NCBI GenBank assembly: GCA_034660555.1
Contig: JAYEJL010000178.1
Location: 1 to 34,329 of the forward strand
Source: Thermotogota bacterium
Lineage (GTDB): Bacteria; Thermotogota; Thermotogae; Petrotogales; Kosmotogaceae
Length of the DNA: 34,329 bases
Direction of reading: 5' to 3'
A program made the position numbers and the translations under genes. Below the pieces are notes generated by a model. That model did no database searches and was not told the origin of the DNA. It saw only the letters and a list, made by a program, of their open reading frames with translations. Positions 17,102 through 34,329 of this stretch are shown here, in pieces. The first letter of the stretch is position 1. Every line of letters begins with the position of its first letter.

Positions 17102-19486
17102 TTATTCTTTTTTCTGAAGTCTTATTGAGTATTCATCAGCATCAACTTCCACAGTATCTCCTGGTTTGACTTCTCCTTCTATAATCATGTCTGCGAGTGG
17201 ACCTTCAACCTCTCTCTCCACAAATCTTCTTAAAGGACGAGCACCAAAGGTCGGATCATAGCCCCTACTTGCAATGAAGTCAACTGCCTTTTCTGTGAAA
17301 TCGAGTTTCATCTTCTGTTCACCTAACCTTCTTAATGTATCTTCAAGTTCAAGCTTAACGATCTTCTTAACATCTTCTTCAGAAAGTGTTTTGAATAGTA
17401 CAATAGAATCTAGTCTGTTAATAAATTCAGGATTGAAATTTGTCTTCAAGCGCTTTTCGAGACTATTCATTATTTCTTCTGTTAGCTCACTATTTTCTGA
17501 AAGTTCTGCCGATGCTATGTTGCTGGTCATGATTATAATTGTATTGGTAAAGCTCACAGTTTTACCATGTCCATCGGTTAATCTTCCATCATCCATCACC
17601 TGGAGTAGTATGTTATGTACTTCTGAATGGGCTTTTTCTATTTCATCGAGTAAAATAACTGAATAGGGCCTTCTTCTAACCTTTTCTGTGAGCTGTCCCC
17701 CTTCTTCATAACCTACATATCCCGGAGGGGCACCTATTAATCTAGATACAGTATGTTTCTCCATGTATTCGGACATATCAATTTGTATGAGTGCGTTTTC
17801 GCTTCCAAAAAGGGTGCTGGCCAGGCGTTTTGCCAATTCAGTTTTTCCAACACCTGTGGGACCCATAAACAAGAATGTTCCCCATGGTCTATTGGGAGAC
17901 TTTAATCCTGCTCTGGCTCTTTTTATGGTTTGCGTTACCGTTTCCACCGCTTCTTCCTGATTTACAAAACGCTGATGAATGAGTTCCTTCAATTTTTTTA
18001 GTTTTTCTCTTTCCGTTTCCAGAAGTTTTCCCGCAGGAATTCCTGTCCATTGTTCTACTATAGATGCAATCAGTTCTGGGGTAACAGTTTTGGCACCACC
18101 CTGATTTGATTTTTTCCATTCATCTCGCTTATTATCGTATTCTTTTTTCAGTCTTTCATATTCGGTTTTTATCTCTGCAGCTTCTTTATATTTTCCTTCC
18201 TGTACGTGTTCGGTGATTTTGTCGTCTAGCTCTTTTAATTTTTTCTCCATAGATCTCAAATCATCAGGCATGTAACCTGATTTTAAACGTACATATGAGG
18301 CTGATTCGTCTATCAGGTCTATTGCCTTGTCTGGCAGGAAACGATCAGTTATGTACTTAACACTTAAATCAACAGCAGTTTTTAGGGCATCTTCTGTTAT
18401 TTCCACATTGTGATGGTCTTCATAAGTTTCTTTGAGTCCATTTAAAATTTCATAAGTTTCTTCAATTGATGGCTCTTCAACGATTATTGGCTGGAAACGT
18501 CTTTCTAGGGCTCTATCCTTTTCAATATATTTCCTGTATTCGTCAAGAGTAGTGGCACCAACGCATTGCAACTCACCACGAGATAAAGCAGGTTTCATAA
18601 GATTTGCGGCATCCATGGAACCTTCAGCTGAACCCGCGCCAACCACAGTATGAATTTCGTCAATAAAGAGGATAATTTCACCTGCCAGTTTCTTTACAGC
18701 GTCTATGATGCCCTTCATTCTCTCTTCGAATTCACCGCGAAATTTTGAACCGGCAATGACACGTCCCATATCAAGGACAAGCACTTTTTTCTCTTTAAGA
18801 TATTCCGGTACAGCTCCTTCAGAAATCCTTTGAGCAAGACCTTCTACAATTGCTGTTTTTCCAACTCCCGGTTCTCCAACCAGAGCAGGGTTATTTTTTG
18901 TTTTTCTTCCAAGTATCTGTATGACACGTCTTATTTCATTTTCGCGACCTATGACAGGTGTTAATTTGTTTTGTTTTGCCAGTTCTGTAAGGTCTATGGT
19001 GAACCGTTTTATAATATTCACATTTTCATTTTCGGTGACATCTGCTTTGTCTCTTTTCTTGAGTATTTCTCCGTAAACCTTATCCACGCTCAAATCGTGT
19101 TTGATCAATATTCTTCCTGCAACGGAAGATAGTTCTTTAACCATTGCAAGTAGCATGTGTTCGGTACCAATACGTGAATCTTTCATTCTTTCAGCTTCAT
19201 TTTTCGCTGTTTCGAGTACATGTCTCGCATCAGGGGTCATGTAGATCTGATTTTTAGGGCCAGAACTGGAACCATATCTACCAATTACATCCTCTACATC
19301 CCTTTTCAATGTATCTATATCCACGTTAAAGGATCTAAGAATATCTATTGCAAAGTTATCTCCATCTTCAAGAATGGCAAGCAAGATATGTTCGCTTCCA
19401 AATTGATTCTGCTTGTATCTCATCAATATATCCTGAACGTCACCTAGAATTTTTTGAGCTTTTTGGGTGTATTGTTCCTGATTCAT
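17102..19486 (-). CDS. Hsp100/Clp ATPase with two AAA+ modules (ClpC-like architecture)
   Basis: Double Clp-N repeat, [14 protein letters not shown], short coiled-coil M domain, [27 protein letters not shown] at 19486 or 19489 after GGAGG. Confidence 0.93.
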
Positions 19487-19499
19487 CATGTACACCTCC

Positions 19500-19530
19500 A
19501 AAAAAAGGGCGCCCTTCTATCGGGCGCCCT
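19500..19530 (-). terminator. Terminator-like hairpin between hsp20 and clp
   Basis: Minus strand AGGGCGCCC-GATAGAA-GGGCGCCC-T7, immediately followed by GGAGG. Confidence 0.75.
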
Positions 19531-19545
19531 CTATCTTCTGCTGTT

Positions 19546-19998
19546 TTACTCTATCTCCAGTTTCTTTGCTTCTCGTTTCGCTTCTTCTTTCTTGGGGAGC
19601 TCGATCTTCAGTATCCCGTTTTCATATTTTGCCTTAGCTTTGTCCTGATCAACATTATCTGGAATTGTGAAAGATCTGCTAAAGTTACCGAATGTTCTTT
19701 CTACTAAATGATAGTTTCTTGATTTGTCTTCTCTTTCGTCTTTCTTTTCACCTTTTACTGTTAGGACGCCATCGGAAAGATCGATATCAAATGCATCTTT
19801 CTCAATGCCTGATATTTCCATTTCAATATTTACAGCATCCTCTGTTTCATAAACGTTTACAGTTGGAATAAAACCATTTCCTATACTTCTTCTGATTCCA
19901 AAGTCTTCAAATGCTTCATCAAACATCCTGTCAATTTCTCTTTGCAAGTCCACAAAAGGTGTAAAGACACTTCCTTCTCTTCTTCTTTCAATAGCCAT
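19546..19998 (-). CDS. Small heat-shock protein (Hsp20/alpha-crystallin)
   Basis: PTVNVYE, VLTVKGEK, ERTFGNFSRSF, AKYENGILKIELPK. Confidence 0.95.
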   Translation of the reverse strand: MAIERRREGSVFTPFVDLQREIDRMFDEAFEDFGIRRSIGNGFIPTVNVYETEDAVNIEMEISGIEKDAFDIDLSDGVLTVKGEKKDEREDKSRNYHLVERTFGNFSRSFTIPDNVDQDKAKAKYENGILKIELPKKEEAKREAKKLEIE

Positions 19999-20036
19999 AT
20001 AGGCTCACCTCCTGTAAATGTTTTTTATTTTATTGA

Positions 20037-21899
20037 TTATTCATTTCCTTTGGGTGGAATGTATTCAGAACCACTTTCAGAATCGCTTGTATCTTCATCT
20101 GATTCGCTAGTTTCTTCTGCATTGGTTTCCTGGGCTGCCTGCTGTTGTTGCTGATCCTGGTAGATTTTCTGACCTATCTTCATGCTTTCTTCCTGTAACT
20201 GGTCAAATAACAGTTTTACTCTTTGCATATTGTTATTGTTTATTGCTTCTCTGAGATCTTTGACCTTTGTTTCAAGATTTGATCGTTCATCATCTGATAA
20301 TTTGTCTCCACTTTCTTTTAGAATTTTCTCAACTCTGTAAGCAAGCTCGTCTGCTTTATTTTTGAGTTCAACTTCCTGTCTGTGTTTCTTATCCTGTTCT
20401 TCGTATTCTTCTGCATCTTTGATAATCTTCTGGATTTCATCATCTGAAAGTTTCTGTCTACCACTGACCACCATTGACTGTTCCTTGTTTGTTCCAAGAT
20501 CTTTTGCATGTACATGCACTATTCCGTCACTGTCTATGTCAAAGGTTACTTCGATCTGTGGAACACCTCTTGGTGCAGGTGGTATTCCTGTTAATTTAAA
20601 ACTACCCAGTGGAATATTGTCGTTTGCCATTGTCCTTTCACCCTGATATACCTTTATCTCAACCTCGGTTTGTCCGTCGTCAGCGGTTGTAAAGACCTTT
20701 GATTTTTTTACCGGGATAGTAGAATTTCTATCAATTATAGGTTCCATTAGACCACCTTTTACTTCTACACCGAGTGTAAGTGGTGTTACATCAACAAGGA
20801 CAAGGTCCTGATCAATATCTCCACCAAGGATACCAGCCTGAGTTGCTGCGCCTATTGCTACTGCTTCGTCGGGGTTAATACCCTTATTTGGGTCTTTACT
20901 AAATATATCCTTGATAAACTTTTGTACGTAAGGAATTCTTGTTGATCCGCCAACCAGAATTATGTCATCAACATCTGATGGAGATATTTCTTTGTCGTTT
21001 AGGACCCTTTCAACCTGTTTTCGTGTTGATTCAATAAGGTCTTTTATCAGTGATTCGAAAGTTGAACGGGTTATTGTCATCTCAAGATGCAATGGTCCAT
21101 CTGATGTCGCTGTTATGAAAGGCAAACTAATTTCTGTTTCAATTTTGGTTGAAAGCTCAATTTTCGCTCTTTCGGCTGCATCCTTCATTCTCTGGAAAGC
21201 CTGTTTGTCTTTTTTCAAATCTATTCCATGCTGTTTTTTGAATTCTCCAGCAATATGATCAATCAATTTCTCGTCAAAGTCATCTCCACCGAGTGTGTTG
21301 TTACCTGCGGTTGCAAGAACTTCTACAACTCCATCACCAATATCAAGCAACGATACGTCAAAAGTACCTCCACCGAGGTCATAAACGATTATTTTCTTAT
21401 CACCTTTTGTTTTATCAAGTCCATAGGCAACTGCCGCTGCAGTGGGTTCGTTTATTATTCTCAACACATCAAGGCCTGCAATTATTCCTGCTTCTTTTGT
21501 AGCCTGTCTTTGTGAATCGTTGAAGTATGCAGGACAGGTTATAACTGCCTTTGATATATTTCCGTCAAGATAATCTTCTGCATCCTTCTTTAGCTTTTTT
21601 AGAATAAATGCACTGATCTCCTGTGGAGTGTATTCTTTGTCATCGATCTTTGCTTTGTAGTCTGAACCCATTTTACGCTTTATTGAACGTACTGTTCTAT
21701 CTGAATTCAGAATAACCTGTCTTTTTGCAGGTTCACCAACCATAATTTCTCCTGTTTTGCTAAATGAAACAATAGATGGTGTAGTACGTGAACCTTCAGC
21801 GTTTGGAATTACCTCTGCATTTCCATCAGGTTTTACCCAGGATATTACTGAGTTTGTAGTTCCCAGGTCAATTCCCACAACATATTCTTTCTTAGCCAC
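20037..21899 (-). CDS. dnaK: Chaperone DnaK (Hsp70), short subdomain-IB type
   Basis: [51 protein letters not shown] start, GGAGGGAG RBS. Confidence 0.97.
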
Positions 21900-24120: not shown

Positions 24121-25179
24121 TTAAATGATAGGAAAAAGAGCGAAGTATTTTTTTGCATTATCGTGAATAACCATCTGTTTGTTAAAGGTAGTTATATTTA
24201 TACTCTCCCCGCCCATTCTACTTATAGCCGACCTAAGTCTGTGAGGTTCAACTTTAGCAATGATCTGTTCTTTGTAAGGTGTATTATCGATTTTAATCTC
24301 ATATTTTGTATTACCCGCTTTAGATAAAAATTGGGTTCCTTTTTCATTCTGTATTAACAATACGCTAAACCCTCTACCTACTACCCGGCACATTTTTCTC
24401 AGGGCGTACTGGAAGTGTTTTTTGCTGAAGGTCGAAGATCTTTCAACAGCTTCAGGTAGATTTAGGATATGCCTGTTTACCTGCGCTTCGGTGTCTCTAC
24501 ATATTGAAAATAGCAACTTACCTATTTTTAAACCCAGATCCCGTATACCTTCCCCCACTATTACTCTTTCAGCTTTTATGTGTTCAAGTGTTTTCACCAG
24601 ATGTCTTGCTGTTACGTAAGGGAATGCAACGGCAAATTCTCTATCCATATCAGTACTGAGAAACGAAATGGTTGTCAGGTTTGATGATTGAGCGATTACT
24701 GCTGTCTTATTCGAAGTGCTTACTAGGCCAAGTGTATCTCCTTCGTCTCCTGGAGATGAAGCGAAGTTTATTGCTTTCTTAAAAACAGTCAGCTTTTGGT
24801 CGAACAATCCTTCAAATTTCCTTTCCATTTTGGGTCTTTCAGGACTGAAGGCATTTTTTAGTTCAAGGGTTTCTTCCGGTGTAGTTATGAGAAGATCTTT
24901 ACCCTTAGTTTTTATCCATATATCAACATTATCATTTCTCTGTTCTTTCAATACTTTGGCCCTATCAATGGGGAAAGCATAGGAACCATCAAAGGTTTTT
25001 ATTTTTTTGTTTAGAGGTATCTCCAGTTTTCCACAACCATCTGTTACGAAAATTTTCAAGCCTTTCCAATAGTAGAAATGAATGTAACGATATCCTGGTT
25101 CTACAGAACCAGCAAACTTTTCACAGATCTCTAGTAATTTAGCATGCTCTTTTACACTTAGTTTGAAGTCCATCTCCAT
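24121..25179 (-). CDS. Hypothetical protein; putative divergent DNA polymerase III beta-clamp (DnaN-fold) paralogue
   Basis: 352 aa, 6 bp downstream of polC, start 25179 or 25173. By-eye end-to-end colinearity with DnaN (see findings). Confidence 0.65.
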   Translation of the reverse strand: MEMDFKLSVKEHAKLLEICEKFAGSVEPGYRYIHFYYWKGLKIFVTDGCGKLEIPLNKKIKTFDGSYAFPIDRAKVLKEQRNDNVDIWIKTKGKDLLITTPEETLELKNAFSPERPKMERKFEGLFDQKLTVFKKAINFASSPGDEGDTLGLVSTSNKTAVIAQSSNLTTISFLSTDMDREFAVAFPYVTARHLVKTLEHIKAERVIVGEGIRDLGLKIGKLLFSICRDTEAQVNRHILNLPEAVERSSTFSKKHFQYALRKMCRVVGRGFSVLLIQNEKGTQFLSKAGNTKYEIKIDNTPYKEQIIAKVEPHRLRSAISRMGGESINITTFNKQMVIHDNAKKYFALFPII

Positions 25180-25185
25180 ACCTGC

Positions 25186-28100
25186 TTAGAAGAGAGTAAT
25201 TTGTTCTTTTTCCGGAAGATCTTTTAATGTTCCGTACTTTCGTAAAACCTCTACAGTGGTTTTGTTGACAGCTGTCCTACTGACAAGATTTTCTATAGAT
25301 GTGAAGGGTTTCTTCCTTCTTTCTTTTGCAACCGATAATGCAGCTTTAATACCGAAATTCTTTATTCTGCAGAAAGGTATTCTCAGTTTGTCCCCTTCTA
25401 TGAGGAATTTGACAGGGTCGGACTTTTCCAGATCAACAGGCAAGAAATCAAATCCTCTTAACTTCATTTCAAGCACGGCCTTGAGCAGCGTTTCTCTATT
25501 CTTGTCTTTAACATTTTTGTCCTGCATGATGGCAAGATTGGTAAGTTCTTTCTTAATTTCATCCGGTTCACAAAGGGCGTAATCAACGTCGAAATCTGCC
25601 CCCTTTATTGTGAAATATGTAGCGTAAAAGGCCATTGGATGGTGAACCTTAAAATAAGCCACTCTGAAGGCCATGCTAACATAGGCGGCAGCGTGAGCCT
25701 TTGGGAAAAGGTACTTTATTCTTTGACATGATTCAACAAACCACTCGGGAATATTGTTTTTTTTCATTATGTCAATATCTTCCTCAGTTAAACCTTTTCC
25801 TTTTCTGACTTTTTCCATAATCTTGAATGCCTTAAGTGGTTTGATACCCTTTGAAATGAGATAATTCATAATATCGTCTCTACATGCTATGACTTCTGAT
25901 AAACTTACTTTTTTTGAACTAATCCAGTTTCTTGCATTGTTAAGCCAGACATCTGTTCCATGAGACAATCCTGATATTCTTACTAGATCGGCGAAGGTAC
26001 CGGGTCTTGTTTCCTGAAGCATGCTTTGAACAAATTGAGTGCCAAATTCAGGGATGCCAATGGTACCAACATCAATCCCAAGTTCTCTCTTATTAAGGCC
26101 AAGGGATTCTGGTGATGAGAAAATTGAAAGTGTTTTTGGATCGTTCATAGGTATTTCCATGGGATCTATGCCGGAAATGTCTTTTAACATCCTTATGAAT
26201 GTTGGATCGTCATGTCCTAAAGCGTCTATTTTAACCAGGTCGTCGTGAATAACTTCATAAGCAAAATGGGTAGTTTTAATCGATGCTCTCGTATCGTTTG
26301 CTGGATACTGGACAGGGGTAAAATCATGTACATCTTTATCTTTGGGGACAATCATCAAACCTCCGGGATGTTGTCCGGTAGTCCTTCTTACACCCAACAA
26401 AGAGAGTACAACCCTGTCTATTTCCGCTCTTCTTAATCGGCGGTTTGTTTTTTCCATATAAGCTCTTGAAAAGCCATAGGCAGTTCTGGCTGCCAGCGTG
26501 CTGATAGTTCCAGCTCTGAACACATGGTCCTTTCCAAAGAGGTTTTCAAGAAATTCGTGCGCTTTCTCCTGGTATTCTCCTGAAAAGTTCAAATCAATAT
26601 CGGGAACTTTATCTCCCTCAAAACCCAAAAAGATTTCAAAAGGTATATTTTGTCCATCTTTTTTCAATTTGTCTCCACACTTTGGGCATTCTTTATCGGG
26701 TAAATCATAACCTGAATCGTAGTCTTTTGGTGTTTCGAAGTAGTGGCAAGAAGGACATGCATAATGAGGAATCAACGGATTAACTTCAGTAATTCCCATT
26801 AGATTAGCTACCAAAGAGCTTCCCACAGAACCCCTTGAACCCACAACATATCCATCTTCATTTGATTTCTTTACCATTTTATGGGCAATTAGATAAAGGA
26901 CGGAATAACCGTGATTGATAATTGCTTCTAATTCCCTTTCGATTCTTTCTTTTATCATTGTTGGCAGAGGATCCCCATATATTCCAAATGCGTTTTCGTA
27001 GGTAATATTTTTAACCTGTTTATCTGCACCTTCGATAATCGGGGGATGTAGTATTCCTTCGATGGGGGTAATTTTTTCTATTCTTTCTGCGATTTTTCTT
27101 GTATTGTCAACAACTATTTCTTTGATTATATCTTCATTTTCAAATATTTTTCTTGCTGCTTCGTACATTTCTTTTGTGGTTCTCAAATATACTGCTGGTT
27201 GTTTGTCAAAGGAAGGATAATCCTGAGCAGCCTGAACCACAGATCTGAAAAATTCATCATGGGGTTCCAAAAAGTGAACATCTCCTGTCATCACAACAGG
27301 AATATTCAGTTCTTTCCCAATTTTATAGAGTGTACGATACATCCTTTTTAGATTTTCTTCACTGGTTCTTGCATCGTTGTTACCCTTTGCTGTTACATCC
27401 AAAGGCATGATCTCAATGTAATCGAAAAACTTGGCGATTTCCTTAAGTTCTGCTTCATTGGCACCGTCTATATACGCTTTTGCCAGCTCCCCTGAGACAC
27501 ATGCGGAACCGATCAATAAATTATCGCGATACTGATTCAACACACTTTTCGGTATGCGGGGTTTTCCATGAAAGTATTCTGTATGGGATAATGTTACAAG
27601 CCTGTAGAGGTTCTTCAGACCATCTTTGTTCTTAGCAAGGATAGAAACATGGTTGGGTCTGACACTTCTGATGTTCATATTTTCTCTCAGTTTATCCAAT
27701 TCCCGGATTTCCATTATTCCCCGTTTCTTTGCCATTGACATTAGTTTTTTGAAAACCTCCGCAGTTACCCTTGCATCTTCTTGAGCTCTATGGTGATTGA
27801 ACTGCCCTACTTTCAATCTTTTTACGACATTATCAAGGGAATAACTCTTTGATTTTAATAATGTTTTTGAAAGGGATAGGGTATCAATATATGGAGGGTT
27901 CCATTCTCTTGAATATATATCCTTTACCGCATTTCTTACGAATCTGTAGTCAAAAGAGGCGTTATGGGCGACAAGTACCGAGCCCTCACAAAAATCAAGA
28001 AACTGTTGAAGTACTTCATGAATTGAAGGTGACTCTTTTAGATCCTTTTCTGTGATTCCTGTTATCTTTTGTACGATTTCATTAATTGGTTGTTTAGGTT

Positions 28101-29433
28101 TTACCAGTGTATTGAATTTGTCAATGATCTTTTTTTCTTTCATTTTCACTGCACCTATTTCAATGATCTCATCACTTGTAGGATCTAGCCCTGTTGTCTC
28201 AAGGTCAAAAACGACATAGGTAGTATCTTCAAGTTTTCTATTTTTATCATCGAGATATCGTATTATCGGTTCTGAATCATTTACCATATAGCCTTCCATG
28301 CCGTATATAGGTTTAATATTTGCCTTTGTAGCTTCACGAAAGAACTCTGGTATTGCCTGGACAACGCCATGATCTGTAAGTGCTACTGAATCATGCCCCC
28401 AGCGTTTAAGCGTTTCAATTAATTCCTTGACATTGAGTACAGAATCAAGCGCACTCATTTTTGTGTGAAGGTGTAGTTCAACCCTTTTAGGTGATTCGTT
28501 GTCCATACGCTTTGGTAATTCTATTTCGTTTATATCCCTTGGTAATATCGTTTCTTCGTTTGTTCTGTTGTCAAGATTCAATTTACCTTTTACCAGAAGC
28601 TCATCGCCTTCTCTGAGCTTTTCATAGAGCTTTTCTGCGTTTTTCCCAATGACTTTACAGGTTATTGAGTCTGTAAAATCAGTTATGTTGAAGGTTAGTA
28701 CGGTGCCACGGCCTTTCCAGAGATCAATTTTGAATAGTTTTCCCTGGACAGTGGCATCCTTCATTTCGCCATATACATCATTTATTCTTATTGGTGCAGT
28801 TTTTATTTTATTTCCGAAAATCACGCTTTTTCTTTTGTTTGTATTATTTGATTGAGTGTCTGCGGTTTGTTTTTCGTAATTTTCCTCTTTTACGGGAATT
28901 TCTTTTTCTGGTTCTTCGCCATCATTATCATCGATCACGATACTGAAAGGAACGGGTTTTCCATAACTTTTTCGTATAGCTTCTCCAAGTTCCTTCTTTT
29001 TGGCATTTATGCGCTGCCTTGTAAAACCGTTTTTAACCGTTATTGTTAAATGATTTCCATCATAATGGATTTTTGATTTATCGAGATATGTTGCAAGTCC
29101 ATTGGTGCACTTTAATAACCGCTGTGAATCACTTGAAAAAGATTGGTTTTCTGTACTGTTTTTATTTTCTTCTTTGCCACCATTTGATTTGCTCATGATG
29201 GTTATTTTCGAATCAATTTGTTGCTCAATGAGCCTTAAACACTGGTTATCCAGCACTTTATTTTGAGCTGCTGTAAGCTCTTGCTCAAAAACCATTGTTA
29301 ATTCCTTTTTCACCGGGTCAATGATTAGATCTGAAAGATTACATTCTTCCAGACACCTGTCAGGATAAAATCCAAGCATTTTCTTGACAATCTTTGTAAC
29401 GGATATGTTCATGTTCTTAAGTCTATATCTCAT
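25186..29433 (-). CDS. polC: DNA polymerase III PolC-type alpha subunit
   Basis: RVELHLHT, TDHG PHP motifs, inserted DEDDh exonuclease (FDLETTG, HRAQEDA), GSRGSVG, Zn finger, KVPDIDLNF, YLFPKAHA; C-terminal QITLF. Confidence 0.97.
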   Translation of the reverse strand: MRYRLKNMNISVTKIVKKMLGFYPDRCLEECNLSDLIIDPVKKELTMVFEQELTAAQNKVLDNQCLRLIEQQIDSKITIMSKSNGGKEENKNSTENQSFSSDSQRLLKCTNGLATYLDKSKIHYDGNHLTITVKNGFTRQRINAKKKELGEAIRKSYGKPVPFSIVIDDNDGEEPEKEIPVKEENYEKQTADTQSNNTNKRKSVIFGNKIKTAPIRINDVYGEMKDATVQGKLFKIDLWKGRGTVLTFNITDFTDSITCKVIGKNAEKLYEKLREGDELLVKGKLNLDNRTNEETILPRDINEIELPKRMDNESPKRVELHLHTKMSALDSVLNVKELIETLKRWGHDSVALTDHGVVQAIPEFFREATKANIKPIYGMEGYMVNDSEPIIRYLDDKNRKLEDTTYVVFDLETTGLDPTSDEIIEIGAVKMKEKKIIDKFNTLVKPKQPINEIVQKITGITEKDLKESPSIHEVLQQFLDFCEGSVLVAHNASFDYRFVRNAVKDIYSREWNPPYIDTLSLSKTLLKSKSYSLDNVVKRLKVGQFNHHRAQEDARVTAEVFKKLMSMAKKRGIMEIRELDKLRENMNIRSVRPNHVSILAKNKDGLKNLYRLVTLSHTEYFHGKPRIPKSVLNQYRDNLLIGSACVSGELAKAYIDGANEAELKEIAKFFDYIEIMPLDVTAKGNNDARTSEENLKRMYRTLYKIGKELNIPVVMTGDVHFLEPHDEFFRSVVQAAQDYPSFDKQPAVYLRTTKEMYEAARKIFENEDIIKEIVVDNTRKIAERIEKITPIEGILHPPIIEGADKQVKNITYENAFGIYGDPLPTMIKERIERELEAIINHGYSVLYLIAHKMVKKSNEDGYVVGSRGSVGSSLVANLMGITEVNPLIPHYACPSCHYFETPKDYDSGYDLPDKECPKCGDKLKKDGQNIPFEIFLGFEGDKVPDIDLNFSGEYQEKAHEFLENLFGKDHVFRAGTISTLAARTAYGFSRAYMEKTNRRLRRAEIDRVVLSLLGVRRTTGQHPGGLMIVPKDKDVHDFTPVQYPANDTRASIKTTHFAYEVIHDDLVKIDALGHDDPTFIRMLKDISGIDPMEIPMNDPKTLSIFSSPESLGLNKRELGIDVGTIGIPEFGTQFVQSMLQETRPGTFADLVRISGLSHGTDVWLNNARNWISSKKVSLSEVIACRDDIMNYLISKGIKPLKAFKIMEKVRKGKGLTEEDIDIMKKNNIPEWFVESCQRIKYLFPKAHAAAYVSMAFRVAYFKVHHPMAFYATYFTIKGADFDVDYALCEPDEIKKELTNLAIMQDKNVKDKNRETLLKAVLEMKLRGFDFLPVDLEKSDPVKFLIEGDKLRIPFCRIKNFGIKAALSVAKERRKKPFTSIENLVSRTAVNKTTVEVLRKYGTLKDLPEKEQITLF

Positions 29434-29939
29434 AGTTGTCTAGCACCTCCAGGGTAAGAACGAAAGGAAAAATGACACCACGCAACAGCCAGTGCATCAG
29501 CAGCGTCATTTGGTTTGGGTGTTTTCTTTAAATGCAAGAATGTTTTCATTACTCTCTGTATCTGTCCCTTTTCAGCTTTTCCGTAACCCGTAACTGCCTG
29601 CTTTACTTGGTGGGGTGTATATTCGTATATGGGAATTTCCGATTGTCTTAAAACGAGTAATACAACACCTCTTGCTTCACCTACCTGAATAGCGGTTGTT
29701 ACATTTCTGAAGAAAAAGAGTTCTTCAACTGCAGCTTCATCGGGTTTGTATTGATTTATCAATGCTTCTAGTTCATCATAGATTTGTATTAGCCTTTCGG
29801 GTATAGGATCTCCGGGTTTTGTTTGAACCACGCCGTATGTAACTGGTGAAATCTTAGCCCCATTTACATCGATTAACCCGTAACCAAGTATTCCAAAGCC
29901 AGGATCTATACCAAGTATTCGTGTGCATTTTTTTGACAA
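29430..29939 (-). CDS. ruvC: Holliday junction resolvase RuvC
   Basis: ILGIDPG, AVEELFF, YTPHQVKQAVTGYGKAEK, DAADALAVA. Probable TTG start at 29939 after GGGGG; 4-bp overlap with polC. Confidence 0.95.
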   Translation of the reverse strand: MSKKCTRILGIDPGFGILGYGLIDVNGAKISPVTYGVVQTKPGDPIPERLIQIYDELEALINQYKPDEAAVEELFFFRNVTTAIQVGEARGVVLLVLRQSEIPIYEYTPHQVKQAVTGYGKAEKGQIQRVMKTFLHLKKTPKPNDAADALAVAWCHFSFRSYPGGARQL

Positions 29940-30136
29940 GCTAATTACCCCCGTTAGTATTTTAATACCTATAAATTGAAGTATTTTTAAGACGATTACT
30001 ATGTGAAGCGTCAACCAGTTTGGCAATTAAAAATGAGCTCATAATGGATCTTTTAGAGTTTGTAAGCAAACGTGTTCATTTAAAAAAGATTACATTTTGA
30101 GCCCGTTGTTAATCTTTATGCACAATTTCTTTCTGG

Positions 30137-30874
30137 TTAATTTTCATTTCCTTTTTTTTCTTCAAGTGCTATTTTCATTTTTCTATATGCTTTTCTTGCT
30201 GCATCCTGTTCTGCACCTTTTTTCGTTTCCCCTTTTCCACAGGCTGCTTCTTCATCATTTATATTTACCGATACAATAAAAAAATTATCCGGTGGAATAC
30301 CTTCTTCCTTTTTTAAAACATAGTCAGGTCTTACACCATAAAGACCCTGTGTTAGTTCCTGGAGTGCGGTTTTGTAATCAAGCAGCAGTTGGCCTTTTAT
30401 AGCTCTTTCAATATATTCTTCCAAAATGTTATATACAAATTTTTTTGATTCAGTTAAACCATTGCTCAAATATATAGCGCCCAAGACAGCTTCCAGTGCA
30501 TCAGCCAGAATTGAGTCTCTTTCTCGACCACCACTCTTTTCTTCTCCTTTTCCCAAAAGCAGATAAGTGCCAATTTTCCGTTCTTTAGACACTCTGGCTA
30601 ATATCTCTTCACTTGCTACTATGGCTCTAACTTTAGACATTATTCCTTCACTCACTGAGTATCTATTGAAGAGAATATCAGCCACACAAAGATCAAGAAC
30701 GGCATCACCAAGAAATTCCAGCCTTTCATTGGATTCAAGACTCTCTCTGTCTTCTCTCTCAATTTCATTGGTGAAAGAAGAATGGCAAAGGGCTTTAAAA
30801 AGTAATTCTGAATCGATTTCTACTCCAATATCTCGTCTAAACCTCTGGATTGTTTTTTTGTACTGCTCGATCAT
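30137..30874 (-). CDS. rnc: Ribonuclease III
   Basis: NERLEFLGDAVL, ADALEAVLGAIYL, C-terminal dsRBD (DYKTALQE..KKGAEQDAA). Confidence 0.97.
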   Translation of the reverse strand: MIEQYKKTIQRFRRDIGVEIDSELLFKALCHSSFTNEIEREDRESLESNERLEFLGDAVLDLCVADILFNRYSVSEGIMSKVRAIVASEEILARVSKERKIGTYLLLGKGEEKSGGRERDSILADALEAVLGAIYLSNGLTESKKFVYNILEEYIERAIKGQLLLDYKTALQELTQGLYGVRPDYVLKKEEGIPPDNFFIVSVNINDEEAACGKGETKKGAEQDAARKAYRKMKIALEEKKGNEN

Positions 30875-32754
30875 TTTAAAATATTCTCCACCGTTTTTGA
30901 GATGGATTTCGAATCTATTCCAGCAAGTTCGTACAGTTTATCTCTTGAACCTGAATAGAAGTACCTATCGAGGCCAAGCTTTTTGAATGTTACTGGTTTT
31001 GTTCCGGTAGTTAGAAGGTAATCAGACGCTATTACACCCAGTCCACTGTTCACATTGTGATCTTCAATTGTTATCAAATTTCCTTTAAGATAATCCTTAA
31101 ATTTATCGAAATTTGCATGTAGAGGACAGCTTACGTTTAAAACCGTAACTTCTATGCCAATTTCCTTCAATAACTCATGTGCTTTTACTGCTTCATTTGT
31201 TGCCTGACCTGTGGAAATAAGTGTTGCGTCTTTTCCCTTGCGAATAAGGTCGATCTCACCGTATTCGAAACTGTAATCGCTGCCAAAGAAAGGTTCACCG
31301 TTTTCTTTTGTGATTGGGTTCAGTTTGGATCTTCCTACAGCAATGACAAAATTTCCGTGTTCTTTAGCACAATATCGGACAGCGCTATCGGTTTGATTTG
31401 GATCAGCGGGAACAATTAATTTGAAACCATAAAAGTTCCTGAGTGCACCGATGTAGTCAACACAATGGTGCGTTTTTCCGTCTTCTCCGACGTCTATTCC
31501 CACGTGCGTAACACCAACTTTTAGATTGCATTTATTAATATCATTCAACCGTTGTTGATTGTAGGTTTCATCAATGCCAAACACTCCAAAATCACCGAAA
31601 AATGTTAATAAACCAGAAATGGACATTGCACCGGCAACAGTTGCTGCATTATGTTCCTGCACACCGATCTGAATAAAACTCTCAGGGAAATCCTTTTTAA
31701 AATAATTGGTTTTTGTTGAAGGCTTCAAATCACAGTCGATAACAGCCATTTTATTTTTGTTCAATCTACCTAAATCAGCAACAGCTTTACCAAATGCGGT
31801 TCGATTGTCAAGTTTCTCATCAGGTTTATATATTGTAGGTTTGCCTGTTTCTACTTCGTAGGTATCTTTTGGTATATCTACGTCTTCATGGATATCAGGT
31901 AGTTCTTTTCGTTTTTTCTTATATTTTTCAATATCATTTTCTTCATTCAGTTCCTTCAGAGCTTTTTTGCATTGTTCTTCATCAAGAGATTTTCCATGGT
32001 AAGTAACGTCGTTTTCCATGAAAGATACACCTTTTCCCATAACGGTTTTTGCTAATATGGCTATGGGACCCTCTTTATAGTTTATGGCTTCTTCTATAGC
32101 ATTATCAAGCTCTTCGTAGTTGTGTCCATCAATTTCAATAGTTTTCCATCCATCTGCTTCATAGGTTTCCTTTATATTGACCTTCATTACATCACTGGCT
32201 TTACCTGTTATCTGAGCATCATTATAATCAACAATTGCAACAATATTATTGAGTCTGTACTTTATTGCAGTTCTCCTGGCTTCAGCGACCTGTCCTTTAG
32301 CCTGTTCAGCATCTCCCATTGCCACAAATACGTTATAATCTGATTTTTTTAGCTTGGCAGCCAGAGCCATTCCTGCACCAGCGGAAAGTCCCTGCCCAAG
32401 ATTACCGGTGCTCCATTCTATTCCTGGTATTCCTCTCGTTATATGTCCTTCAAATATGGTTCCCGGATGTCTGAAACCCGTTATAGCTTCTTCAATATCA
32501 AAAAAGCCCAATCTTCCAAGAACAGAGTAAACTCCAGGTGATGTATGCCCGTGACTCACTACGATTCTATCTCTTTCTGGATTAAAGGGGTTCTCAGGAG
32601 AAATATTTGCATGATTGTAAATCGAAAGATAAATATCTACCGATGACATTGAACCCCCAGGATGTCCTGAAGAAGCCACTGTTGTCATTTTTAAAATATC
32701 ACTTCTACATGTATTACCAAGTCGCTTTAACTCTTCGAGTGAATACTTTCTCAT
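30871..32754 (-). CDS. tkt: Transketolase (single chain)
   Basis: SGHPGGSMS, SHGH, STGNLGQG, GDAE..N TPP motif, GEDGKTH, IEDH. Confidence 0.9.
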   Translation of the reverse strand: MRKYSLEELKRLGNTCRSDILKMTTVASSGHPGGSMSSVDIYLSIYNHANISPENPFNPERDRIVVSHGHTSPGVYSVLGRLGFFDIEEAITGFRHPGTIFEGHITRGIPGIEWSTGNLGQGLSAGAGMALAAKLKKSDYNVFVAMGDAEQAKGQVAEARRTAIKYRLNNIVAIVDYNDAQITGKASDVMKVNIKETYEADGWKTIEIDGHNYEELDNAIEEAINYKEGPIAILAKTVMGKGVSFMENDVTYHGKSLDEEQCKKALKELNEENDIEKYKKKRKELPDIHEDVDIPKDTYEVETGKPTIYKPDEKLDNRTAFGKAVADLGRLNKNKMAVIDCDLKPSTKTNYFKKDFPESFIQIGVQEHNAATVAGAMSISGLLTFFGDFGVFGIDETYNQQRLNDINKCNLKVGVTHVGIDVGEDGKTHHCVDYIGALRNFYGFKLIVPADPNQTDSAVRYCAKEHGNFVIAVGRSKLNPITKENGEPFFGSDYSFEYGEIDLIRKGKDATLISTGQATNEAVKAHELLKEIGIEVTVLNVSCPLHANFDKFKDYLKGNLITIEDHNVNSGLGVIASDYLLTTGTKPVTFKKLGLDRYFYSGSRDKLYELAGIDSKSISKTVENILK

Positions 32755-32769
32755 CGTTATACCTCCTCA

Positions 32770-33615
32770 TCAATACTGTTCTTCATCGTTTTCTTTTTCC
32801 CAGCTCTTGTTTTGATTTTTCCTGAATTCTTCAAAGGGCAGTTTTAAGGTTTGACCTTCATCCGTGACCAGGTTTATCATTTTCAGAAAAATATTAACTG
32901 TAAGCACCTTACATGTTTTCCCATTGTATTCGATTACTGATCCTTCATCAGGAATATTTTCAAGCTCCTCGTTATATAAATCCTGTTCATAAGCCAGACA
33001 GCATAGCAACCTACCACATCTTCCTGAAATCTTTGCTGGGTTAATCAGTAGCTGCTGTTTTTTAGCGTGTTTAAGTGTTATACTTTGAAATCCTCTTAGA
33101 AATCGTGTACAACAAGCCACCTGGCCGCATAAACCAAGATTGCCTTTCATCTTGACTTCGTCACGTATACCAACCTGACGAAGCTCTATTCGTGTTTTGA
33201 AGATACGTGCAAGATCCTTAACCAGATCACGGAAATCCACTCTGCTGTCTGCTCCAAAGTAAAAAACGATACGTGAACGATCAAACATGTATCTTGCTTC
33301 CAGCAGGCGCATGGGTAAATTATGTTCCTTAATTCTTTCTTCGCAGGTTTTGAAAGCTTCTTTTGAATCTTCGATATTTTTTTCGTGGTTTTTCCAGTCT
33401 TCCTGTGTCATTTTTCGGACTATGGGCTGAATATCTATGTTATCAATGCGTTGTTTCTCAGGTCCTTTCTGAACCTTGCCTACATCGAGGCCGAATTCAT
33501 TGTAGGCAAGTACATAATCCCCTCTGTCGATGGGAAATTCTCCAGTGGAATACTTATGTAGTTCTCCCCCTGGACGAAATTCTATATAACAAACGTTACC
33601 ATATATTTCAGGCAT
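32770..33615 (-). CDS. PSP1-domain protein (RicT/YaaT family)
   Basis: RVDFRDLVKDLA..FKTRIELRQVG.RDE, GLCGQVACC, KISGRCGRLLCCL. Confidence 0.92.
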   Translation of the reverse strand: MPEIYGNVCYIEFRPGGELHKYSTGEFPIDRGDYVLAYNEFGLDVGKVQKGPEKQRIDNIDIQPIVRKMTQEDWKNHEKNIEDSKEAFKTCEERIKEHNLPMRLLEARYMFDRSRIVFYFGADSRVDFRDLVKDLARIFKTRIELRQVGIRDEVKMKGNLGLCGQVACCTRFLRGFQSITLKHAKKQQLLINPAKISGRCGRLLCCLAYEQDLYNEELENIPDEGSVIEYNGKTCKVLTVNIFLKMINLVTDEGQTLKLPFEEFRKNQNKSWEKENDEEQY

Positions 33616-34329
33616 AATTTCCCTCCTTAAACGATTTATTTTTTGAAATCAGATTACTATGTGCAATGTACAAAATCTTGAAAAGTACCAGATCACTATT
33701 CAATGATCTTACCTTTAACCGACTTATCTTATCGCACCAATTAAAATCTTCAGGCCTTATTTGTTTTGTATCTCTAGAGATAAACCATTCGATGAGATCG
33801 AGATTAAAAACTCTGTGCCATTGCTTACTGTTGTTTATTATCAAAGCATCGCGTAACATACTTTTTATAACCTTTGAGAAAATGCCATACAAATAGAATG
33901 GATTTTCAGAACTGGTTATTTTACCCTTTAGTTCATTATATTTTTCAAAAAAAGTTGGCTCAATATTGTCTGCAACAGTTCTAATTATAAAGGCAATAAT
34001 TTTTCTTTTTTTAAGTTTTGATAATGGTTCATATTCATTCGTATTGACCAACTCATCCAACAAATAACTCCAGCGAAGATTTTCAATTTCCTGCAGTGAC
34101 TCTATCTCGCTTGATAGATCGTTTTCGAGTGAATACTTAAGTAATGAATAATCTTCATTGCAAGCGGCGTATATATGTTTCACATTATTTCTGTATTGCT
34201 TTTTTAATTCTTCTAGCAAGTATAAAGGATAAGGCACTTCAAATATCATGGTGCGACTTCTTATAGTTGTAATCACACTGTTCCATGATGTTGAAGTCAT
34301 TATAATTGATGTATTATATTGTGTTTCTT
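33608..34329 (-). CDS. holB: 3' part of a probable DNA polymerase III delta' subunit (gene begins beyond the window)
   Basis: Frame stays open to the window edge: ETQYNTSIIMTSTSWNSVITTIRSRT resembles the delta' EEP...LLPTIRSR segment. Position upstream of PSP1/yaaT matches the known holB-yaaT order. Confidence 0.65.
   Translation of the reverse strand, partial: ETQYNTSIIMTSTSWNSVITTIRSRTMIFEVPYPLYLLEELKKQYRNNVKHIYAACNEDYSLLKYSLENDLSSEIESLQEIENLRWSYLLDELVNTNEYEPLSKLKKRKIIAFIIRTVADNIEPTFFEKYNELKGKITSSENPFYLYGIFSKVIKSMLRDALIINNSKQWHRVFNLDLIEWFISRDTKQIRPEDFNWCDKISRLKVRSLNSDLVLFKILYIAHSNLISKNKSFKEGNYA

Follow-up and report, generated by a model that had tools for sequence, protein, structure and literature searches.

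A divergent, basic beta-clamp paralogue of Thermotogota encoded next to polC in Petrotogales

The locus downstream of polC

The window analysed here is a stretch of 34,329 nucleotides (contig JAYEJL010000178.1 of the Thermotogota bacterium assembly GCA_034660555.1). On its minus strand, a polC gene is directly followed by an open reading frame that we call ORF X. The features are, in the direction of transcription:

25186..29433, minus strand: polC, PolC-type DNA polymerase III, 1415 aa, with the tail ...PEKEQITLF (QxxLF clamp-binding type)
25180..25185, minus strand: spacer GCAGGT, 6 nt, from the polC stop (TAA) to the first ATG of ORF X
24121..25179, minus strand: ORF X, divergent basic beta-clamp paralogue, 352 aa (ORF list and translation)
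25173, minus strand: second ATG, likely the true start of ORF X; the product then has 350 aa
24820..25179, minus strand: clamp domain I, about aa 1–120 (secondary structure, conservation, predicted interface)
24439..24819, minus strand: clamp domain II, about aa 121–247 (secondary structure, conservation, DnaN alignment)
24124..24438, minus strand: clamp domain III, about aa 248–352 (secondary structure, conservation, DnaN alignment, predicted interface)
24121–24123, minus strand: stop codon of ORF X

The identity of PolC, the product of the ORF upstream of ORF X on the same strand, was evident from NCBIfam NF001688 (1747 bits, cut-off 873) and from the Pfam domains PHP, RNase_T, DNA_pol3_alpha, finger and HHH_6. 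An initial annotation had described a 352-aa ORF 6 bp past the polC stop on the same strand, and this arrangement was confirmed, both genes lying on the minus strand. The second ATG of ORF X, two codons past the first, is better spaced from the AGG, and database homologues have 350 aa with a start matching it; it is therefore likely to be the true start. The ORF X peptide quoted in the initial annotation also begins there. The 6-nt spacer leaves no space for a promoter or terminator, so polC and ORF X are probably translationally coupled in Petrotogales, including the source genome, and we propose that ORF X would be transcribed together with PolC in the same genomes. A terminator scan of the interval between polC and ORF X found none; the promoter and terminator scans scored no higher than expected from shuffled sequence and were uninformative.

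Clamp fold, predicted ring and lost pocket

Searches of Pfam and NCBIfam with the ORF X protein gave no match, BLASTP against the DnaN of its own genome yielded nothing significant (best E 1.1) and phmmer against PDB sequences returned 0 matches at E values up to 10. Among 38 family members, only two touched Pfam PF00712/PF02768 (E 0.02–0.065). These direct sequence tests failed; the relation to DnaN became visible only via profiles and a structure model. The alignment used for this (A1) consisted of ORF X and 37 of the 44 matches of a representative search, that is, 38 members; P0036 and the short fragments P0040, P0041, P0044, P0048, P0050 and P0051 were left out. P0036 (1470 aa, six stretches) was rejected as a spurious family member, being a WD40-repeat protein. 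The ten best matches of the A1 profile in the PDB were all beta clamps, led by 1vpk, the DnaN of Thermotoga maritima (E 3.9e-6), with colinearity of 32–331 versus 46–353. Alignment of the ORF X family with 28 Thermotogota DnaN sequences by hhalign gave a probability of 99.2% in global and 98.1% in local mode (E 7.4e-14). It spanned 348 columns at 12% identity and paired residues 3–352 with DnaN 1–365, in line with the end-to-end colinearity previously recognised by eye. A control with reversed DnaN reached a probability of 0.5% (E 0.12), compared with 98.1%, and the similarity is thus far above chance.

The AlphaFold2 model of ORF X (pLDDT 95.2, pTM 0.91) showed a strand–helix pattern repeated three-fold, and its top Foldseek matches were bacterial beta clamps (TM 0.77–0.82). 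Together with the profile search of the PDB, these results bear out the three-domain clamp fold proposed in the initial annotation: ORF X is a remote DnaN homologue with a three-domain beta-clamp fold. By features, its nearest ESM Atlas clusters were divergent phage clamps (score 0.95). Phage DnaN-type clamps (phrog_947, “DNA polymerase processivity factor”) were weakly matched by 11 of the 38 family members (E 3.5e-11 to 0.01), while the ORF X protein of the source genome itself had no match to phrog_947. The ordinary DnaN of the same genome matches phrog_947 far better, at 6.6e-67, which indicates that the PHROG matches reflect general clamp homology. A phage origin of ORF X is thus unsupported, phrog_947 being a general DnaN-type family.

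The domain limits are approximate, as they were taken from the repeating strand–helix pattern. Each domain carries conserved features of its own. Domain I contains G24, E27-P28, R31 and T46-D47-G48-C49 as well as the predicted ring-interface strand 102–110 (E103, L105). The motifs of domain II are D138-F139-x-S141, E146, C227 and P187-Y188-x3-R192-H193-x2-K196 on helix 188–198; G24, R192 and K196 are invariant in the family. Domain III provides the predicted interface strand 289–296 (Y293) and helix 255–266 (K262), followed by a basic helix at 312–320 (R314, R316, S317, R321) and a C-terminus that reads FALFPII where DnaN has IIMPIRL.

Prediction of the homodimer, a check suggested by the initial annotation, passed with a score of 0.73 versus 0.00 for the best of three controls, although likeness to solved DnaN dimers may by itself yield a pass according to the tool's own warning. 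In calibration, the mark was reached by 20 of 30 proteins whose solved structure pairs two copies of one chain and by 1 of 23 whose solved structure is a single chain. Three runs shared at least 97% of contacts with a partner pLDDT of at least 89, and the contacts were reciprocal, pairing strand 102–110 with strand 289–296. The family has 28 positions with a conservation of at least 70%, and five of them (P70, K75, E103, L105 and Y293) belong to the 30 residues of the interface. On average, the interface hardly differs in conservation from the remainder of the protein (mean top-residue fraction 0.36 vs 0.34). Going by the predicted complex, ORF X most likely closes into a head-to-tail homodimeric ring.

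The DnaN motifs SDGFRLA, FPDYxxVLP, FNPxF and MPIR line a hydrophobic peptide pocket in domains II/III, which is also used by the delta subunit of the clamp loader. Among the 28 DnaN sequences, the pocket motifs D173-G174-x-R176-x-A178, F241-P242-D243-Y244, F319-N320-P321 and P363-x-R365 were 100% conserved, and the canonical DnaN of the source genome keeps them. In the ORF X family, all four align to unconserved columns with a top residue of only 11–50%. For instance, the pocket strand SDGFRLA falls on the unconserved residues 164–171 of domain II, where DnaN ADGFRLAL is aligned to QSSNLTTI, and EFPDYKKVLP is aligned to QVNRHILNLP at 233–242. This agrees with the initial annotation, in which neither TDGHRL nor FPDY could be recognised. 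More generally, 66 DnaN positions are at least 90% conserved, and only 4 of the 66 are kept as the majority residue in ORF X. DnaN is placed on primed DNA by the DnaX clamp loader and gives Pol III its processivity. A search of the source genome with the delta-subunit Pfam model PF06144 gave no match; a full-length delta-like candidate was detected by TIGR01128 with 56.8 bits, under the cut-off of 80.

The charge of ORF X is basic. Median values were pI 9.06 and net charge +8 for the 38 family members versus pI 4.75 and −18 for the 28 DnaN, and in the source genome the two proteins have pI 9.4 and charge +14 (ORF X) versus pI 4.7 and −22 (DnaN). Eleven positions carry K/R in at least 70% of the family, eight of them on predicted helices. 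C49 and C227 occur both together in 29 of the 38 members, singly in three and not at all in six, counts that are not independent owing to kinship. ORF X thus resembles DnaN (PF00712/PF02767/PF02768; 1vpk, TM0262) in its three tandem clamp domains, its length (352 vs 368 aa), its colinearity and its predicted head-to-tail ring via strands of domains I and III. It differs in the 12% identity, the missing Pfam and NCBIfam matches, the 4 of 66 conserved positions, the lost pocket motifs, a pI of about 9 instead of about 4.7, its own conserved motifs and its coexistence with a normal DnaN. Judged by its sequence, ORF X is not an ordinary clamp.

The shared fold and head-to-tail interface geometry would also suit a protein that acts on DnaN, as a heterodimer partner of its protomer or as a regulator or decoy competing for DNA or the loader, and so tunes clamp availability; all genomes searched for both proteins contained the two together. 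We regard such a role as very unlikely, because the interface residues of ORF X are unlike the aligned ones of DnaN (E103/L105/Y293 vs S104/F106/V302), the ORF X homodimer alone scores well, and competition for the loader is doubtful for a protein that lacks the pocket used by delta.

Distribution, selection and gene neighbourhood

The canonical dnaN of the source genome sits on a separate contig (C85), so ORF X is a true paralogue and this claim of the initial annotation stands. DnaN was present in 61 of 61 Thermotogota genomes sampled, and the ORF X family in 144 of 151 Thermotogota genomes, representing 47 of 48 genera. A word-indexed search with the family profile returned nine matches and no member outside Thermotogota. 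One cluster includes a partial protein labelled as a Thermofilaceae archaeon MAG, a label that is probably a binning error.

Among the full-length family matches listed, the reading frames were intact, and stops occurred only in a few partial or split copies. With dN/dS ratios of 0.08–0.12 in four within-genus pairs, the ORF X family is under purifying selection. The low identity to DnaN (12%) and the faster divergence of ORF X (79% identity compared with 90% for DnaN in the same genome pair) might have been signs of a decaying or functionless dnaN duplicate. We consider this hardly credible: it is contradicted by the intact frames across 144 of 151 genomes and by the dN/dS values, and the very confident fold prediction and the invariant residues of the family speak against it as well.

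Gene neighbourhoods were compared for 140 full-length ORF X loci, with G081, G083, G042 and G068 left out as partial, split or unlisted. In Petrotogales, ORF X lies directly downstream of polC at 40 of 48 loci (23 of 24 in the family of the source genome and 17 of 24 in its sister family), compared with 0 of 92 in the other nine families. Within Petrotogales, genus g7 has the two genes apart. Of the 92 loci outside the order, 24 share a contig with polC, but at a distance of at least 31.9 kb. The ORF X fragment of G081, which is outside the count, abuts polC.

The conserved polC linkage expected in relatives thus holds in Petrotogales and fails elsewhere. This bears on the idea that ORF X is a processivity clamp dedicated to PolC, with DnaN serving DnaE and the repair enzymes. 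The 6-nt distance between the genes in the window, the adjacency at most loci of the two families and the predicted closed ring are all in keeping with it; moreover, Thermotogota have both PolC and a DnaE-type polymerase, and two clamps for two polymerases would be economical. However, the adjacency is confined to Petrotogales, with none at the 92 loci of the other families and separated genes in g7, which weakens the case for a PolC-dedicated role. PolC carries a QxxLF-type tail in eight of nine genomes checked, whether or not ORF X is adjacent, and the pocket motifs that receive such tails are invariant in DnaN and missing from ORF X. This role for ORF X, first raised in the initial annotation, therefore appears improbable to us.

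In the other families, ORF X follows alaS, ddl, tsaD or an NFACT gene, with ychF as a further neighbour, and the neighbours outside Petrotogales are mostly non-replication genes. Replication and repair genes occur as well: radA and a gene for an AP-endonuclease-2 family protein lie nearby in two genera, and dnaE is found two genes upstream of ORF X in one genus (G049, G050). The latter was rejected as a second replicase linkage, as it is limited to this single genus; in five other genomes of the family, the upstream position is taken by clpC-radA-osmC or a TPR gene.

Such surroundings raise the question whether ORF X could be a nucleic-acid-binding ring or arc outside the replisome, bound by charge and free of a loader, with a part in chromosome architecture, heat protection or RNA/ribosome function. 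In its favour, ORF X is strongly basic, with only 7 positions of at least 70% D/E compared with 42 in DnaN, has lost the polymerase pocket and ends operons with alaS, tsaD, an NFACT/RqcH-type gene or ychF. However, these operon partners vary by family, so that none amounts to a conserved functional link, and translation genes are common in housekeeping operons anyway. Replication and repair neighbours are found as well (polC; dnaE in one genus; radA and the AP-endonuclease-2 family protein), and no RNA-binding motif was found in ORF X. On balance, a role outside the replisome seems unlikely.

Proposed role and comparison with known systems

The explanation that we favour, by a modest degree over its being wrong, is that ORF X, a DnaN paralogue of ancient origin and vertical descent, forms a DNA-embracing ring with rebuilt surfaces beside the normal clamp. 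An ancestral copy of DnaN would have been kept vertically in Thermotogota, the only phylum in which the family was found here. The three-domain fold has been retained, as most likely has the head-to-tail ring, and the surfaces have been rebuilt. Specifically, the pocket between domains II and III, with which DnaN holds QL(S/D)LF-type polymerase tails and the delta wrench, is no longer conserved, and the acidic outer surface is gone, which leaves ORF X basic. The conserved K/R residues are placed on predicted helices that line the channel in clamps. Solely from the charge and these helix positions, we infer that ORF X may bind DNA, and its ring might grip nucleic acid more tightly than DnaN does.

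A conserved loop patch in domains I–II (G24, E27, P28, R31, D47-G48-C49, D138, F139, S141, E146 and C227) could provide an alternative docking surface for a partner. The site may be where domains I and II meet, a position that corresponds by pseudo-symmetry to the canonical pocket. The pseudo-symmetry and the co-occurrence of C49 and C227 would be consistent with such a shifted docking site. ORF X may then act alongside DnaN in replication or repair, not as its replacement. Without the canonical pocket, a clamp loader would lack an obvious way to open the ORF X ring. A more specific version, to which we give little credence, is a two-clamp system in which a charge-held, loader-free ORF X ring has a client docking at the domain I/II junction (TDGC hairpin, C227), maybe one of the two Pol III-type polymerases.

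Second clamp genes are known from other bacteria. In actinomycetes, extra DnaN copies give self-resistance to griselimycin. Bacillus DnaN-2 reportedly shares about 40% with DnaN-1 and is able to take part in replication (PMC3290774). Like ORF X, these are encoded besides a housekeeping dnaN, but they are ordinary clamps of single genera, while ORF X is far more divergent, phylum-wide and has a rebuilt surface. A recent duplicate would have about 40% similarity to its own DnaN and would keep the clamp motifs; ORF X has neither.

The herpesvirus proteins UL42 and UL44 have a clamp fold and bind DNA directly via basic surfaces, without a loader. They are viral PCNA-type two-domain proteins that are monomeric or form C-shaped dimers. 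Their likeness to ORF X is functional only, consisting in the clamp fold, the basic, DNA-gripping character and the lack of an obvious loader route; ORF X differs as a three-domain DnaN-type protein with a predicted closed ring. If the two-clamp system were true, ORF X would represent a cellular counterpart of such loader-independent processivity factors, with a pocket that migrated around the ring.

The beta clamp is seen as the single, near-invariant hub of replication in bacteria, with a peptide pocket that serves as a drug target. A whole phylum nevertheless retains a second clamp-fold protein in which the pocket is lost, the charge is reversed and residues of its own are invariant. In our reading, this is a novel, phylum-wide form of the beta clamp. 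Should it prove to be a functional ring that uses another docking site or loading route, it would broaden the range of bacterial clamps and would offer an example of a pseudo-symmetric ring that changes its interaction sites. It would also add a replication or repair component in thermophiles of a deep-branching lineage, with proteins that lend themselves to structural work.

A search of the openly accessible literature found no account of a second clamp in Thermotogota. TM1395, a tentative locus tag for the T. maritima gene, matched only unrelated C. elegans strain names in the literature. The ORF X family is absent from curated family libraries and merits a model and a name in protein family databases. 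Reference genomes including that of T. maritima label the family member “hypothetical protein”. Some databases automatically name members “DNA polymerase III subunit beta(-like)”, so the fold has not gone entirely unnoticed.

Locus and clamp fold of X

ORF X closes a single seven-gene run on the minus strand (window 24121-34327) that comprises a delta'-like fragment, RicT/YaaT, transketolase, RNase III, RuvC, PolC and X, with intervals, in this order, of -8, +15, -4, +110, -4 and +6 nt.

Located features of the X region
24121-25179, minus strand: X, an ORF of 352 codons (ORF list, translation)
25186-29433, minus strand, upstream of X: polC, 1415 aa (NCBIfam NF001688, 1747 bits, cut-off 873)
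32770-33615, minus strand: RicT/YaaT (266 bits)
33608-34327, minus strand: delta'-like fragment, weak (NF005515, 23 bits; cut-off 204)
20037-21899, minus strand: DnaK, heat-shock cluster
19546-19998, minus strand: Hsp20-family small heat-shock protein, heat-shock cluster
17102-19501, minus strand: ClpB-type AAA+ chaperone, heat-shock cluster

The 1415-aa ORF is PolC beyond doubt, displaying the Pfam domains OB, PHP, RNase_T, DNA_pol3_alpha, finger and HHH_6. Its TAA stop is followed by GCAGGT and the ATG of X; ORF list and sequence thus confirmed the initial annotation, which had placed a 352-aa ORF 6 bp past the polC stop on the same strand. A second ATG two codons into X (25173) corresponds to the start in database homologues of 350 aa and is better spaced from the AGG than the first. 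The delta'-RicT pairing resembles the holB-yaaT pair known in Bacillus subtilis. From the opposite side a PhoU_div/PHO4 pair converges on X, and the heat-shock cluster (17102-21899, minus strand) lies just past this phosphate transporter pair.

Taken singly, X matched no Pfam or NCBIfam model, found no PDB sequence by phmmer and yielded nothing significant against the DnaN of its own genome in BLASTP (best E 1.1). An exhaustive representative search returned 44 proteins with E values of 0.001 or less, 37 of which were combined with the query into a profile of 38 members (A1), leaving out six fragments and one spurious WD40 protein. The best 10 PDB matches of A1 were all beta sliding clamps, headed by Thermotoga maritima DnaN (1vpk, E 3.9e-6; colinear, 32-331 against 46-353). 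Comparison of A1 with 28 non-identical Thermotogota DnaN by hhalign (one locus with a wrong ORF left out) gave 99.2% in global and 98.1% in local mode (E 7.4e-14), with 348 aligned columns (X 3-352, DnaN 1-365) and 12% identity; a reversed-column DnaN alignment as control gave 0.5%. AlphaFold2 with A1 produced a model (pLDDT 95.2, pTM 0.91) in which the clamp domain pattern was repeated three times, and Foldseek retrieved at least 500 PDB matches, the top ones listed being all bacterial beta clamps, 1vpk included (TM 0.77-0.82, 11-15% identity). Fold and homology are settled: X is a member of the DNA-clamp fold superfamily, homologous to DnaN. The fold and end-to-end colinearity with DnaN that had been proposed earlier are thus borne out by profile matches, hhalign span and the three domains of the model.

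A DnaN paralogue throughout the phylum

Contig C85 of the same genome encodes a canonical DnaN of 368 aa (PF00712 84 bits, PF02768 113 bits) that ends ...YIIMPIRLI, so the paralogue inference of the initial annotation was right as well: X is a paralogue of canonical DnaN. DnaN was found in 61/61 sampled genomes of the phylum, and the A1 profile detected X in 144/151 Thermotogota genomes (47/48 genera; 113/117 high-quality genomes). Completeness of the seven genomes in which X was not matched ranges from 68 to 98%. In G002, one of the seven, polC was not matched either, suggesting an assembly gap; both genomes of family f5 (G044 and G045, 71% and 90% complete) contain polC and no X-profile match, and X may have been lost or strongly diverged in this lineage. 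Identity to the window's X drops with taxonomic distance, from 94, 91 and 79% among members of the genus to 34-44% for the rest of the family and 24-29% for its sister family, which fits vertical descent from the phylum ancestor. All names returned for X members were Thermotogota, except one partial MAG protein labelled Thermofilaceae. Those of the close homologues assign the window's genome to Kosmotogaceae (Thermotogota, Petrotogales).

With dN/dS values of 0.08-0.12 (four within-genus pairs; DnaN 0.02, one pair with saturated dS), X is under purifying selection. There is thus hardly any chance that X is a dead duplicate, and it is very probably a clamp-fold DnaN paralogue with a function. 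Partial second copies of the last domain of X (residues 253-352) are present at G003:C20:78242-78541 and G023:C236:7226-7522; the former lies ~1.5 kb downstream of the full X gene, is 84% identical, contains stop codons and looks like a pseudogene fragment from local duplication. Besides intact DnaN and X, genome G026 carries a third DnaN-like stretch (G026:C1:1818015-1819064; 32% identical to DnaN across residues 20-366, two in-frame stops). At G094:C1:11552-13097, X is split into two adjoining frames (profile positions 1-335 and 168-349), which may reflect a frameshift in the gene or a tandem duplication of part of it.

Of 66 positions that align with X and are at least 90% conserved in the 28 DnaN, only four have the same majority residue in the X family. 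SDGFRLA, FPDYxxVLP, FNPxF and MPIR, which we take to be the motifs lining the peptide pocket, are essentially invariant in these DnaN, whereas the commonest residue in the aligned X columns reaches only 11-50%. IAQSSNL and EAQVNRH, noted initially as standing where pocket motifs were unrecognisable, are indeed such aligned and unconserved sites. The charge is reversed, mainly because acidic positions were lost: X has a median pI of 9.06 and net charge of +8 (38 members, pI range 6.1-10.0) versus 4.75 and -18 for DnaN, and the window's own pair shows pI 9.4 and +14 versus 4.7 and -22. Columns with at least 70% D/E number seven in X and 42 in DnaN, counts that are only indicative because the DnaN set is less diverse. 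Across the phylum, X thus stands beside DnaN as a selected, basic protein of DnaN-derived clamp fold without the canonical pocket motifs. Since it lacks two testable defining features, a match to curated sequence models and a conserved pocket, it was not filed as DnaN. NCBI lists its members as 'hypothetical protein'; UniRef auto-names for some read 'DNA polymerase III subunit beta(-like)' or 'beta sliding clamp central domain-containing protein'.

Known second clamps, among them the actinomycete resistance copies, are much closer to the housekeeping clamp than X is. In Bacillus, DnaN-2 and DnaN-1 have about 40% in common (PMC3290774). A description of the X family was not found in the literature covered, which excludes most subscription journals and hence is not proof of absence. 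X is a phylum-wide, basic, pocket-less variant of the beta clamp.

Linkage to polC

Scripted comparison of X positions (140 full-length matches) with polC positions located X directly downstream of polC at 23/24 loci of the window's family, the remaining one lying at a contig end, and at 17/24 of the sister family; the exceptions there are a fragmented genome and genus g7, whose two genes lie on separate contigs or 52-659 kb from each other. The order ruvC-polC-X recurred in 9/12 Petrotogales loci examined. In the other nine families, 0/92 loci were adjacent (24 on the same contig at a distance of at least 31.9 kb, 64 on other contigs, four without listed polC). The linkage reported initially therefore extends to relatives within Petrotogales and stops there. 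It suggests co-expression with the replicase there, but a feature restricted to a single order is too narrow a basis for a PolC-dedicated clamp. Of nine genomes sampled from across the phylum, eight have a PolC with a Q-x-x-L-F terminus and one has QITLI, regardless of X linkage, and DnaN retains the pocket motifs that serve such tails. The PolC-specific reading is thus weak, and we consider it unlikely.

In other families X is found at the end of different operons, following alaS in f10 and ddl in f8 (topA-ddl-X in one genome). It also occurs as clpX-tsaD-X in some f9 genomes, as NFACT-X-aminotransferase (f6) and as ychF-orf-X (f7), and it stands alone in two f9 genomes. No single partner is conserved outside Petrotogales. 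A dnaE two genes upstream of X in G050, considered as a wider replicase link, recurred only in the same genus. At loci outside Petrotogales (L053, L055, L061, L062, L075, L076, L079), X often occupies the operon 3' end with translation-linked genes (alaS, tsaD, an NFACT/RqcH-type gene, ychF); upstream of X in two f6 genera are radA and a gene of the AP-endonuclease-2 family. The only full-length delta (holA)-like candidate of the window's genome, G000:C85:18180-19091, reached 56.8 bits with TIGR01128 (cut-off 80), and a Pfam PF06144 search for delta in this genome gave no match. Only 2/25 Petrotogales genomes searched passed the TIGR01128 cut-off, which marks delta in Petrotogales as unusually divergent.

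Predicted ring and conserved surface

Complex prediction with two X copies, A1 and three controls returned the verdict 'supports binding' (score 0.73; runs 0.74, 0.73, 0.73; best control 0.00), with contact agreement of at least 97% and partner pLDDT of at least 89. In calibration the mark was reached by 20/30 proteins whose solved structure is a one-chain pair versus 1/23 solved as single chains, counts that are only a rough guide for a supplied alignment such as A1, and likeness to solved complexes can yield such a pass. Strand 102-110 and helix 70-81 reciprocally contacted strand 289-296 and helix 255-266 in both directions, a predicted pattern that is that of the DnaN head-to-tail closed ring. 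Of the 28 family positions that are at least 70% conserved, five (P70, K75, E103, L105, Y293) are among the 30 predicted interface residues, giving partial support; the interface overall is not better conserved than the rest (0.36 vs 0.34), which counts against a ring. On these models X probably forms a ring. As it occurs beside DnaN, X might instead regulate DnaN or be its heterodimer partner, a reading that we regard, next to the predicted homodimer, as highly improbable.

G24, R192 and K196 are invariant in the X family and D47, G48, P187, Y188, H193 and R321 at least 90% conserved; family motifs are DKxxGxxEPxxR, TDGC, LDFxSxxLxEG, PYxSxRHLVKxL and PxKLRSxLSR. Clamp helices line the central channel. 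Eight of the 11 X columns with at least 70% K/R fall on predicted helices (K14, K21, K75, R192, K196, K262, R314, R316) and three in loops (R31, R269, R321), and the conserved features include helical K/R and a loop patch in domains I-II. We thus propose that X would close into a homodimeric ring, embrace DNA more tightly than DnaN and offer a different docking surface to a client in replication or repair, and that in Petrotogales it would be made together with PolC. We lean slightly towards DNA as the ligand and would name any particular client with far less confidence. The same basic surface could serve a nucleic-acid ring outside the replisome, which seems doubtful to us. Herpesvirus clamp-fold factors are basic and loader-independent; X may behave alike, their architecture being unrelated.

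C49 and C227 co-occur, both being present in 29/38 X members, one in 3/38 and neither in 6/38. In the model, domain I has C49 in its beta3-beta4 hairpin, and the last strand of domain II ends with C227. The pocket of DnaN is built from the hairpin of domain II together with the C-terminal strand of domain III, and by pseudo-symmetry of the fold the two cysteine sites would be the domain I/II counterparts of these elements.
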